Assembly: GCA_048882325.1 (NCBI GenBank)
Contig: JBHLRS010000063.1
Location: 1-13,128, forward strand
Source of the DNA: Candidatus Thorarchaeota archaeon
GTDB taxonomy: Archaea; Asgardarchaeota; Thorarchaeia; Thorarchaeales; Thorarchaeaceae
Reading direction: 5' to 3'
Length of the DNA stretch: 13,128 bases
In this document: in pieces, positions 3,309 to 9,706 of the stretch
Position numbering within the stretch: position 1 is the first letter of the stretch
Layout of the letters: each line of letters opens with the position of its first letter
Translations under genes and position numbers: made by a program
The notes under the pieces: model-generated
The model's input: only the letters and a program-made list of their open reading frames with translations
The model's database searches: none
Told to the model about the DNA's origin: nothing

Positions 3309-3323
3309 TGGCGTCGTCGATAG
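3309..3323 (-). repeat. Degenerate copy of tRNA-Asn 3' end (att-like site)
   Basis: Minus strand CTATCGACGACGCCA versus CTACCGGCGGCGCCA: 12/15, all three differences are transitions. Lies 11 bp after the stop at 3297. Confidence 0.55.
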
Positions 3324-3616
3324 ACCCTTCAAATGAGGAATTAATATGGCAATAATTACACATGACGAAAAATGTAAGCAAGGAGTGAGCATTGTTCTGG
3401 GACATTTTTATTACGAAGTAGCATGAAGGATTACGTTTGGGAAGAATCTTGCAGTGAGGTGCGCAAGCTACAAACCAACAGTATAGAATGGACGTGGCGT
3501 TTAACTATTCCCAAGGATTTACCATCTAAAATCAATCCAAATTGGACTGGACCTAATATTACGATTGATCCCTACGATATTACATTCATCGAAAATTTGA
3601 CTTTATATTTCAACCA

Positions 3617-3634
3617 AACAGCAATGTTAATATT
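3617..3634 (+). promoter_or_regulatory. tRNA-Asn promoter (BRE/TATA)
   Basis: AACAGCAATGTTAATATT with TTAATA starting 35 nt upstream of the tRNA. Same spacing at tRNA-Glu; a related GCAACGTTAATAT precedes tRNA(CAT). Confidence 0.7.
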
Positions 3635-3661
3635 CGAATCCTCAGTCCGACCCCGATACAA

Positions 3662-3859
3662 GCCGCCGTGGCTCAGTAGGTAGCGTGATGTTCCTTTGGG
3701 AACTTCGCACCTAAAGCGACAGCTTTTAGGCGCGATTCGCGTCATGCCGCTTAAGCCTGTTACCTCTCAGTAGGTAGCTGAGAGCCAGACAGTTGTTGGT
3801 CGTAGGTTCGAGAATCGATCTCCTTGCGAGGTCGATCGGTGACCCTACCGGCGGCGCCA
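3662..3859 (+). tRNA. tRNA-Asn: tRNA-Asn(GTT) with four introns (3684-3714, 3721-3753, 3763-3790, 3813-3842)
   Basis: Removing the four segments at BHB-type cut sites gives GCCGCCG TG GCTC AGTAGGTA GAGC G ACAGC CTGTTAA GTTGT TGGTC GTAGG TTCGAGC CCTAC CGGCGGC GCCA: 76 nt, all stems pair, anticodon GTT, discriminator G73, encoded CCA. Confidence 0.93.
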
Positions 3860-3907
3860 TCTACACTATAGTTAACTCATAACATTTCCTTATTCCTGAT
3901 TATCTAT

Positions 3908-6349
3908 CTAGCTTTCGATTGTTTCTCTAAACCATGACTCAGCTTTACTTCGTTTTCGTTCATCATTTGGAGGACAGATTTTCACCCATTGAACGGTGTC
4001 CTCCTTTGAAGATGTAGTAGCCCTCCAACGAACTGATACTTTCTCACCAGTAGGATAATATCTGATTAAATCTGGTCTAACGGTGATTTTGATACCCAGA
4101 CTTTCTGCAACAGCACTCTCATCGTCAACAAGATTACTTCTATTTGCATCCACGGCTGAAACCAGATTCTTCGCTGCACTCGCAACCTCCGAATTGTCAC
4201 TTTTTTGGAGTTGCGATAATGCCGTATAAGATATCCAACTCTGTTTAACCAGATCCTCGGTTTGTCCACCGGATTCTTTTACTAAGGAAATCTCAGACGC
4301 TCCTACTTTGGATTGAAAACCAAACTTGTTCTGTTCATCCTTGATGTACAGAGCTACATTTCTACTCCAGTAAAAGTATCCTGTTGAATCAAATCCCCCA
4401 TCTTCAGGAATTAACTCCTCCAAGTACGCACATCGAGCTTCCTCTGACCAGTTGAGATATCCCTCAGGAAGACTTGGATTTGTAATGGTCTTGTTTCCAG
4501 GAGTCATTCCTTCATGAATCATGATTAGTCCTATCTGATTCTGAATGTGAACCTCGTATGACCCTGGACGAAGTTTCGGTCTGAGTGTGATATCACCAAA
4601 GTTGCTGAGAATGTCCTGAACGCGATCTATACGTTCGAGATGTTCTTCGTTGTAGGTTATCCTCCCCGACTCTCGTAAATGACAATCACTTACAATAATG
4701 GCTGCAAGACGAGCCTTCAAGACTTCTAATTCCTCTCCCTCTGGAAATCGCGGGTTCTCGATTCCCGCCTGACCATTTACTCCAGTGACCTTGGTCACAC
4801 GCCCCTCCAAATTGGAAAGTTTTCTATCCGTTGAATCAAGATAGAATCTAACAATTTTCCCTTCCAATCGCGTACTCTTCTCACTTATTGGTCTCTTCCT
4901 TGCTGAAGTTCCATCATCTCCTGCATGAAACTGCTTCACAACCTCATTCATGTGTTTCAATGACTTGTGAGGGCTCTCCTCCAGTCCAAATTGCCTCTGA
5001 AGTTCATTGACAATACAGGTGATCTCTTTGTTGTCCCTGAAGTAGTAGAACTCTGTTTCATAGGCGCTGACAAGTTCATCAGACCTGTTCTTCGGAATCC
5101 AAGTGTACATTCTATCATCAACATATGCAACACGGGCTCGATTGTGCTCAAGACCAAGTTTTTGGGTTAGGGATTCCTCAATCTCCTGTCTGTTTGAATC
5201 AATAAACCGTTTCAGTTCAGTATTTTGCTTAGAATCAATCTCTGACTTGAAGTCTGCATACCGAACAGGATGTTTCTCACTTGATTCATCCCTGAGCATA
5301 TGCTCAACAGCTGAAGCTACTCTTTCGGAAGAGAGCCTGTCAGACTCCCACATCTTTTCGATAGACTCTCGAACCTTATGAGGCTCTATCTGCTTGATCG
5401 CTTCTTCCCTATCCCCAACCTCCTGTGTTACACTCTTCCTGATCCTCTCGATGTCTTCAATCTGTGGAGAGTCCTTGGTCCATTCCTCCATTATTCTCTC
5501 TTCTTCATGCTCGCGCAGTCTTTTGATTAGATTAGGCTCAATACCGTTCCTACAATATCCAATGAAGGTGTGACTCACATCGTGCTGTTCAGCAAGATCA
5601 TCCCTCTTTGTAGAATGTTCATCCCTGACTTCATAATAGACCTCACACCGTCTATAATTCTCATCAAAGCCCGCTCGTTCTCGCTCCTCAGGATACTTCT
5701 CTAGTAAATCATCAACATCCTTCATTGATTCAATTTGAGCCTCAGGTAGACCATCATGAACTGACTCGTACATTCGTCTGAGTTCACGGCTCTCGACCTC
5801 TTCTACAATACTTGGTTTTTCAACATCCTCACCGCGGTCGAGCTTTTCGAAATACTCTGATGCCTCAGTTTCATCCTTTTCATAGCTCTTACGCAGTTTC
5901 ATTTCAGAGTGATTCTCAACAGCATTGTCATATTCTTCCTTTGTAGAAATCTCTCCAAAACGAGATTCCTTTTGTTCATACTGTTCCTCAGATGAGTCGT
6001 CTATGACCTCCCTCCTCTCCTGGTCATCAAGTTCCTCCAGAGCTTTCCTGAGTTTTTCCTCAGTGGACTCGTTAGACTTCTCCATCTTCTCTAGGTCCTC
6101 AAGAACCTCGTCAAGCTTTTGGGATATTTCCTCCTCCCTTTCTCTCTCCTCATTCACCTCCTTGACTACCTGCTCGACAATCTCCCTAGCGGAAACCTCA
6201 GCTACTTGATCGGTTTCAGAAGCATCGAGAGCGAGTTCACGAGCACGCATCAATTCAACAGATTCCAAGTCCTCGACCTTGGTTTCATCAACCTCTTCAC
6301 GGTACTCCCTGCGATGACGCTTGATTCCCTCTCCGGACACGCCCTCCAT
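3908..6349 (-). CDS. Free-standing protein with acidic coiled-coil N-terminus, HTH and C-terminal double-motif LAGLIDADG (DOD-type) endonuclease-like domain
   Basis: Motif 1 ARLAAIIVSDCHL and motif 2 AYLEELIPEDGGF, about 95 aa apart. HTH-like RDDLAEQHDVSHTFIGYCRNG. Strong SD AGGAGGT at 6356-6362. No intein splice-junction motifs seen. Confidence 0.7.
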   Translation of the reverse strand: MEGVSGEGIKRHRREYREEVDETKVEDLESVELMRARELALDASETDQVAEVSAREIVEQVVKEVNEEREREEEISQKLDEVLEDLEKMEKSNESTEEKLRKALEELDDQERREVIDDSSEEQYEQKESRFGEISTKEEYDNAVENHSEMKLRKSYEKDETEASEYFEKLDRGEDVEKPSIVEEVESRELRRMYESVHDGLPEAQIESMKDVDDLLEKYPEERERAGFDENYRRCEVYYEVRDEHSTKRDDLAEQHDVSHTFIGYCRNGIEPNLIKRLREHEEERIMEEWTKDSPQIEDIERIRKSVTQEVGDREEAIKQIEPHKVRESIEKMWESDRLSSERVASAVEHMLRDESSEKHPVRYADFKSEIDSKQNTELKRFIDSNRQEIEESLTQKLGLEHNRARVAYVDDRMYTWIPKNRSDELVSAYETEFYYFRDNKEITCIVNELQRQFGLEESPHKSLKHMNEVVKQFHAGDDGTSARKRPISEKSTRLEGKIVRFYLDSTDRKLSNLEGRVTKVTGVNGQAGIENPRFPEGEELEVLKARLAAIIVSDCHLRESGRITYNEEHLERIDRVQDILSNFGDITLRPKLRPGSYEVHIQNQIGLIMIHEGMTPGNKTITNPSLPEGYLNWSEEARCAYLEELIPEDGGFDSTGYFYWSRNVALYIKDEQNKFGFQSKVGASEISLVKESGGQTEDLVKQSWISYTALSQLQKSDNSEVASAAKNLVSAVDANRSNLVDDESAVAESLGIKITVRPDLIRYYPTGEKVSVRWRATTSSKEDTVQWVKICPPNDERKRSKAESWFRETIES

Positions 6350-6609: not shown

Positions 6610-6629
6610 ACCTACTGAGCCACGGCGGC
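6610..6629 (-). pseudogene. Truncated tRNA-Asn 5' fragment (nt 1-20)
   Basis: 6610-6633 is the exact reverse complement of 3658-3681 (ACAAGCCGCCGTGGCTCAGTAGGT). Identity stops in the D-loop. Confidence 0.85.
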
Positions 6630-6657
6630 TTGTTCTCGGTGTGTCGCTTCTGAATGC

Positions 6658-6675
6658 AATATTAACATTGCTGTT
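6658..6675 (-). promoter_or_regulatory. Second copy of the tRNA-Asn promoter
   Basis: Exact reverse complement of 3617-3634 (18/18), spaced from the tRNA start within 1 nt of the plus-strand copy. Confidence 0.75.
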
Positions 6676-6682
6676 GGTTTGT

Positions 6683-8911: not shown

Positions 8912-9018
8912 TGGTGGGCCCGAGGGGATTTGAACCCCTGACCGATCCCCTATCTGGACGAAATGTCCAGATATACAGGTTATGAGCCTGCTGCTCTACC
9001 AAGCTGAGCTACGGGCCC
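8912..9018 (-). tRNA. tRNA with CAT anticodon, probably Ile2, with a 30-nt intron at 43/44 (8945-8974)
   Basis: GGGCCCG TA GCTC AGCTTGGTA GAGC A GCAGG CTCATAA CCTGT [intron] CGGTC AGGGG TTCAAAT CCCCT CGGGCCC ACCA. The GGGCCC acceptor stem is typical of archaeal Ile tRNAs rather than Met. Confidence 0.9.
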
Positions 9019-9628: not shown

Positions 9629-9706
9629 GCCCCGATAGTGTAGCCCGGCCCAGCATCTAGGCCTTTCGAGTCTAAGACCCGGGTTCGAATCCCGGTCGGG
9701 GCACCA
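9629..9706 (+). tRNA. tRNA-Glu: tRNA-Glu(TTC), intronless
   Basis: GCCCCGA/TCGGGGC acceptor stem, TAGGC-CTTTCGA-GTCTA anticodon arm, CCGGG-TTCGAAT-CCCGG T arm, ACCA end; TTAATAA at 9594-9600. Confidence 0.96.

Follow-up and report, generated by a model that had tools for sequence, protein, structure and literature searches.

A tRNA-Asn(GUU) gene interrupted by four introns in a Thor-type Asgard archaeon

The segment at positions 3662-3859 of the forward strand of the window (the whole 13,128-nt stretch of DNA that was analysed) is a tRNA-Asn(GTT) gene of five exons and four introns. It is very probably the functional, and apparently the only, tRNA-Asn(GUU) gene of a Thor-type Asgard archaeon, with splicing by the route proposed below. 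The host genome is metagenome-assembled and comprises 89 contigs (3.6 Mb, 44% G+C, 93% complete), of which the window is contig 63; the DNA runs that contain the stretch are metagenomes from sediment, marine sediment and estuary. Two congeners of the host were deposited as 'Candidatus Thorarchaeota archaeon'. The original prediction had set the gene against the multi-intron tRNAs of the Thermoproteales; the host is an Asgard archaeon labelled Thorarchaeota and does not belong to that group.

Gene structure and spliced product

The five exons are 22, 6, 9, 22 and 17 nt long, and all features of the gene lie on the plus strand. Exon 1 (3662-3683) supplies mature nucleotides 1-22, that is the 5' strand of the acceptor stem, U8, the 5' strand of the D-stem, the D-loop and G22. 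It is followed by intron 1 (3684-3714, 31 nt), at site 22/23 in the D-arm, and by exon 2 (3715-3720), a micro-exon of 6 nt holding nucleotides 23-28. Intron 2 (3721-3753, 33 nt) lies in the anticodon stem at site 28/29, which can equally be written as 29/30, its boundary sliding by 1 nt with the product unchanged; the boundaries of introns 1, 3 and 4 are fixed. Exon 3 (3754-3762, nucleotides 29-37) carries the anticodon GTT at 3759-3761, and intron 3 (3763-3790, 28 nt) occupies the canonical 37/38 site. Exon 4 (3791-3812) provides nucleotides 38-59, intron 4 (3813-3842, 30 nt) lies in the T-loop at site 59/60, and exon 5 (3843-3859) provides nucleotides 60-76, with the discriminator G73 at 3856 and an encoded CCA at 3857-3859. 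When the sequence was re-read and passed to ARAGORN, the coordinates, intron lengths and boundaries of the original prediction all stood as given.

Joined, the exons form a 76-nt product. ARAGORN identifies it as tRNA-Asn(gtt) and folds it into a full cloverleaf whose acceptor stem has 7 bp; the discriminator is G, CCA is encoded, and all 21 of the 21 stem pairs are made. An encoded CCA is present in 26 of the 27 genes of this genome with a full acceptor 3' end called by ARAGORN. The anticodon GUU and the discriminator G73 are the Asn identity elements in recognition by AsnRS, and the four-intron gene, as far as its sequence can tell, has both (GTT anticodon, G73). The spliced product is identical at 76 of 76 positions to an uninterrupted congener gene, L015:1491-1566. 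The covariance-model check of the mature sequence was run on this identical gene, which scored 71.2 bits on RF00005 (cut-off 29), more than every tRNA detected in the genome carrying the four-intron gene. Both the cloverleaf and the identity to the congener gene confirm that the predicted cuts would yield an exact 76-nt tRNA.

A blind search was made across the 3.6-Mb genome. All 7-bp acceptor pairings with NCCA were used as anchors, and relaxed bulge-helix-bulge candidates were then removed in all combinations under cloverleaf constraints. From 5162 anchors the search returned precisely the four cuts described above, with no stem mismatch. ARAGORN rejected the remaining solutions with at least three introns, apart from those that spuriously extended an intron-less tRNA-Glu at 9629-9706. 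Because the product matches the intron-less gene throughout and the cuts were recovered blind, the tRNA-Asn identity and the four cuts are decisively beyond chance, and the four-intron gene is real. The argument is drawn from the comparative data, and the splicing motifs are not relied on for it. Relaxed motifs are common by chance, the candidate rule firing about once per two positions, and the same caution is given in a recent preprint (10.64898/2026.10.13.758758). The reading of the inserts as four introns of the archaeal splicing-endonuclease kind is supported. A split or permuted tRNA gene is ruled out, the five exons being colinear within 198 nt. A 5' fragment at 6610-6629 (minus strand) was considered as a split-tRNA half and rejected, as it has no partner in the genome and a complete gene is present in cis.

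In its unspliced form the gene was missed by ARAGORN with introns allowed, by Rfam at the gathering threshold and by a whole-genome Infernal search at E<=10. A search of 3600-3920 (321 nt) against Rfam at E<=10 gave no tRNA and a single chance match to a microRNA family. The expectation that standard scanners would overlook the gene was therefore borne out for ARAGORN and for Rfam/Infernal, which miss the genomic form even when E<=10 is allowed. None of four methods (ARAGORN, Infernal, BLAST of the mature sequence and the blind search) found a second tRNA-Asn in the 93% complete genome, which answers, for that assembly, the question raised with the original prediction of whether this is the only such gene.

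A partial tRNA census of the host genome was compiled with a relaxed motif rule; it covered class I genes only and needed an uninterrupted 7-bp acceptor stem and CCA. It gave 21 ARAGORN-confirmed genes, eight without an intron, ten with one, two with two, and tRNA-Asn with four, or 0.86 introns per gene. The tRNA-Asn gene is thus an outlier in its genome, and the most interrupted gene in this 21-gene partial census, as a lower-bound statement. The same class I census did not find tRNAs for Asp, Ile, Val and others. Other tRNAs of the host genome are missed or mis-called by ARAGORN/Infernal (contigs C8, C9, C25, C40, C60 and C76), namely Ala(TGC), Pro(GGG), Pro(CGG), Ala(CGC), Tyr(GTA) and Arg(CCT). 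Pro(GGG) and Tyr(GTA) have two introns each, and introns in this set lie at positions 15, 20, 54 and 59. Within the window, the minus-strand gene at 8912-9018 is called by ARAGORN as tRNA-Val(cac) with a 17-nt intron in the anticodon loop. It fits better as a tRNA with a CAT anticodon (Met or Ile2) and an intron of 30 nt that follows position 44 and so lies in the variable region; spliced in that way it has no stem mismatch and ARAGORN returns Met(cat).

Splicing motifs, machinery and proposed pathway

In each of the four motifs the predicted cut follows the second base of the bulge. The intron 1 motif has a central helix with four of four pairs and an intron helix of 4 bp with a further 5 bp. 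The central helix of the intron 2 motif is also complete (4/4) and is unchanged across nine orthologues; its intron helix is only 2 bp, followed by an internal loop and a distal stem. In the intron 3 motif three out of four central pairs are formed, the intron helix is 8 bp and the outer helix is the anticodon stem. The mismatch in its central helix, T35xC, is kept in all 14 genes having this intron. The intron 4 motif also has three of four central pairs (T54xT mismatch, plus one G-U pair), with an intron helix of 9 bp and the T-stem as outer helix; in three congeners its central helix reaches four of four in the same register. Bulge-helix-bulge geometry had been proposed for every insert. 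It is found in strict form for introns 1 and 2 and only in relaxed form for introns 3 and 4, and the helices given for the latter two (CTGT/CCAG and TTCG/CGGT) are not fully complementary, each containing the one mismatch. Broad-specificity EndAs do accept relaxed motifs, although taken alone such motifs are weak evidence.

When the precursor and its partly spliced forms were folded by free energy, the motif conformers did not emerge, and no splicing order gained support. For the naked precursor RNA, the fold containing all motifs has a free energy of -72.8 kcal/mol versus -88.4 kcal/mol for the minimum free-energy (MFE) structure, and the motif pair probabilities are <=0.01.

The micro-exon has a bearing on how the first two introns leave. 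Exon 2 gives the intron 1 motif its third bulge base and the intron 2 central helix its entire exon strand, and A23 would have to be unpaired in the former and paired in the latter. Because the exon is shared and A23 is needed in two states, the two motifs cannot be canonical simultaneously. It is therefore likely that intron 2 leaves before intron 1, or else that the two are removed from alternative folds. Closely spaced introns are known to require removal in turn (tRNAscan-SE 2.0, PMC8450103).

The host genome contains two PF01974 genes (the fold of the EndA catalytic domain). The product of one, 187 aa, has the Tyr/His/Lys triad and gives a gapless alignment to the alpha subunit of Aeropyrum pernix (E 5e-46), spanning the lysine-bearing loop and the His mutated in entry 3ajv. 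The other is a 233-aa paralogue without the catalytic His. Non-canonical sites can be cut by EndA enzymes that are either epsilon2 or (alpha-beta)2 with the L1/crenarchaeal loop. Asgard EndA is of the (alpha-beta)2 form with an L1 loop (PMC5829648), and the host pair would, from these alignments, match the two-subunit, crenarchaeal-type (alpha-beta)2 class. RtcB is also encoded (E 1.9e-178).

Two sediment metatranscriptome runs, from different studies, contain contigs of 229 and 151 nt which cover 3679-3875 and 3683-3830, respectively. They are 93-95% identical to the window, ungapped, and have the unspliced four-intron form, with all listed differences in the introns. The contigs represent the unspliced form of a close relative and offer a weak hint of transcription, DNA carry-over being possible, while they are silent on splicing. 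No junction-spanning spliced RNA was found in the metatranscriptome libraries, and runs X20 and X18 gave no cover. The ends of the X17 and X19 contigs in or beside exon 1 were considered as RNA ends and rejected, because exon 1 is common to many species and copies and assembly graphs branch.

The proposed pathway builds on the observed gene structure, intron boundaries, conservation with covariation, and enzyme genes. Transcription would start from the conserved upstream promoter and yield a precursor of at least 198 nt. Each insert, together with neighbouring exon bases, would adopt a bulge-helix-bulge or a relaxed helix-bulge-helix motif, in whose two 3-nt bulges a two-subunit, (alpha-beta)2-type endonuclease would cut. 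RtcB would then join the five exons to give the 76-nt tRNA with its encoded CCA.

Orthologues, intron copying and flanking sequences

In a search of 40 related genomes the tRNA-Asn gene was present in many congeners. Sixteen congener orthologues were aligned to the intron-less gene, the genus being represented by 28 species genomes. Introns occur at six sites (22/23, 28/29, 37/38, 43/44, 50/51 and 59/60). One species has none, two species have one intron, four have two, and four have three, with a fifth (L008) read by eye. Four introns, at the identical four sites, are found in four species (the host genome, G020, G021 and G015), and five in one, G002, at sites 22, 28, 37, 43 and 50. The site of intron 3 is occupied in 14 of the 16 orthologues. 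Every aligned orthologue splices in silico to a product with 21/21 stem pairs and the identity Asn(gtt).

The differences follow a pattern of selection: compared with the L003 gene, 76 of 76 exon positions are identical versus 81% of intron positions. Where exons differ among the orthologues, the changes compensate one another within the pairs 4:69, 5:68 and 50:64; the other variable positions are R57 and nucleotide 17 of the D-loop. Nucleotide 17, which forms the outer pair of the intron 1 central helix, covaries with its intron partner (A-T, T-A or C-G) in six of eight genes, and the intron hairpins vary in sequence among congeners with their pairing kept. Three orthologues (L006, L010 and L011, in G015, G002 and G004) end in GCTT and not GCCA, and so have no encoded CCA, unlike the rest of the genus. 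A motif with the consensus CTATAGTTAAT lies a few bases 3' of the gene in about half of the orthologues, at 3860-3880 in the window and also in L002, L004, L007, L010, L011 and L030.

Comparison of the introns at different sites revealed a likeness between those at 43/44 and 50/51, whose identity averages 0.71 and reaches 0.83 at most, compared to 0.44-0.57 in the other cross-site pairs; none of 500 shuffles reached the observed value. The introns at these two sites are copies of one another (L010 of G002, L012, L011, L016 and L030), and G002 has both. The likeness is evidence for the duplication of an intron 7 nt apart inside one gene. Within intron 3 of the host gene, 3766-3778 is an exact 13-nt copy of 3672-3684, that is of the D-arm of exon 1 and the first base of intron 1. 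The number of such copies expected by chance within the gene is put at about 1e-4. Four close congeners share the copy; more distant ones are without it and have a different intron 3 hairpin. When the four introns were compared with the genome and with each other by BLAST, only chance-level 12-17-mers were obtained, and no intron family was found within the genome.

A conserved 18-nt block resembling a BRE/TATA element is located at 3617-3634 (plus strand), with its last base 28 nt upstream of the mature 5' end. With one Y position, it is found at the same distance upstream in nearly all 16 orthologues, two of them having one or two base changes. The same block precedes a broken tRNA-Asn copy at 6610-6681 on the minus strand, which consists of the promoter block and nucleotides 1-20, and the sequence further upstream is unrelated between species. 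The block is a putative promoter, judged by its conservation. Two more broken copies lie on the minus strand, a degenerate 3' end at 3309-3323 and a perfect 15-nt 3' end (mature nucleotides 62-76) at 1057-1071, and several congeners have extra 5' fragments which stop at nucleotides 19-21, beside the site of intron 1. The broken copies suggest repeated recombination or integration at the tRNA-Asn gene and, because they lie so near to it, the four-intron gene may itself have arrived with a mobile segment.

An 86-aa open reading frame at 3423-3683 (plus strand) runs into exon 1. It had been described as dubious and is spurious, with no Pfam family and with tblastn matches in relatives that cover only residues ~55-86, the part made of promoter and tRNA DNA. 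An 813-aa open reading frame at 3908-6349 (minus strand) is convergent with the tRNA-Asn gene and adjoins it in at least six congeners, at 30-63% identity; searches of Pfam, PHROG and PDB gave no match to it.

The range of 0-5 introns at six sites in one gene of nearly unvarying mature sequence, the copies at 43/44 and 50/51, the 13-nt copy in intron 3 and the broken copies ending at nucleotides 20-21 lead us to suggest, tentatively, that the tRNA-Asn locus of this Thor-type genus is a hot spot where introns are actively being gained and lost. If so, it would provide a direct handle on the arrival of such introns, which may be copied locally inside a gene, perhaps in connection with recombination at tRNA genes. 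In the census preprint (10.64898/2026.10.13.758758) the question of intron arrival is explicitly left open.

Alternative explanations and known systems

The gene might be functional with one or two of the imperfect inserts (intron 3, 4 or 2) cut in another register, or dependent on an extra factor or on the prior removal of a neighbouring intron. The three-of-four central helices of introns 3 and 4, the shifted register of their 3' bulges in the MFE folds, the overlap of the first two motifs at exon 2 and the removal of closely spaced introns in turn (PMC8450103) would all be in keeping with this. The intron-less orthologue, however, sets what the product must be, and no other pair of cuts for introns 1, 3 or 4 yields it, while intron 4 attains all four central pairs in three congeners without change of register. 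A different mode of cutting is regarded as very unlikely. Another alternative is that the gene is a decaying, non-functional copy on a mobile segment, its inserts not all removed, with a working tRNA-Asn in the unassembled 7% of the genome. Such a view could draw on the pieces of tRNA-Asn which flank the region, on the sequence upstream of the promoter, which differs between species, and on a genome that is 93% complete. Decay is difficult to reconcile with exons identical to those of the intron-less orthologue and changes in relatives that are compensatory, and with a four-intron layout that recurs in four species, the promoter and the CCA being kept as well; nor did four methods find another Asn gene. 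We consider it highly improbable that the gene is such a relic.

The source is a metagenome-assembled genome in 89 contigs, and an assembly artefact or a chimera of the metagenome bin has also to be weighed. The same architecture was, however, assembled independently in at least three other species, and contigs in two further RNA libraries show it as well. Six DNA runs from two studies contain the stretch at 0.97-1.00 of its words, although these runs are possible sources of this DNA. The probability of an artefact is taken to be negligible, and we retain the reading of a functional, four-intron tRNA-Asn gene.

The Asgard archaea are the archaeal group closest to the eukaryotes. An essential tRNA gene that is invisible to scanners makes related genomes seem to be without tRNA-Asn (in the host genome, other tRNAs, among them those for Asp and Ile, seem to be lacking too). 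The overlapping motifs and the short exons (6 and 9 nt) bring the archaeal machinery of cleavage and joining nearer to its limits and imply that splicing is ordered. The most useful part of these results is the series of 0 to 5 introns within one genus, a natural experiment in how introns are gained, lost and copied.

In 2021 'up to three' was still the standard statement of the maximum number of introns in an archaeal tRNA (PMC8450103), and the original prediction had taken more than three as novel. That claim fails. Valentin-Alvarado 2024 (PMC11291895), in Supplementary Data 4, gives tRNAs with four introns in Freyarchaeia (Arg-TCT, Ile2-CAT and Leu-GAG) and Atabeyarchaeia-2 (Trp), and up to five introns per Asgard tRNA gene are reported in the October 2026 preprint (10.64898/2026.10.13.758758). 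No record is set here, four and five introns per tRNA gene having already been reported in other Asgard lineages.

The tRNAs of Atabeyarchaeia and Freyarchaeia (PMC11291895) and those of the Asgard census preprint are alike in having short, non-canonical introns, many in the D-arm or T-arm, which are missed by standard annotation. The lineage described here (NCBI label Thorarchaeota) is absent by name from the main text of both, and the published Atabeyarchaeia and Freyarchaeia genomes have a tRNA-Asn with two introns, compared to four here. The intron-rich Asgard families of the census have a mean of more than two introns per gene (10.64898/2026.10.13.758758), whereas most of the tRNAs found in the host genome have 0-2 and its partial census gives 0.86 per gene. 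Genes of the Thermoproteales (Pyrobaculum, Thermofilum and Caldivirga; Sugahara et al. 2008, as relayed in PMC8450103) likewise carry several non-canonical bulge-helix-bulge introns each. Their EndA, as is predicted for the host, is an (alpha-beta)2 enzyme that has the crenarchaeal loop; introns in close proximity have to be taken out in sequence, and introns related to one another are found at different positions. They belong to another phylum, and no more than three introns per gene are reported for them (PMC8450103); the gene described here has four and that of a congener five. In the red alga Cyanidioschyzon merolae (PMC3728597), tRNA genes also contain several short non-canonical introns each, with motifs like the bulge-helix-bulge, but it is a eukaryote in which some of the genes are permuted, whereas the tRNA-Asn gene described here is colinear.
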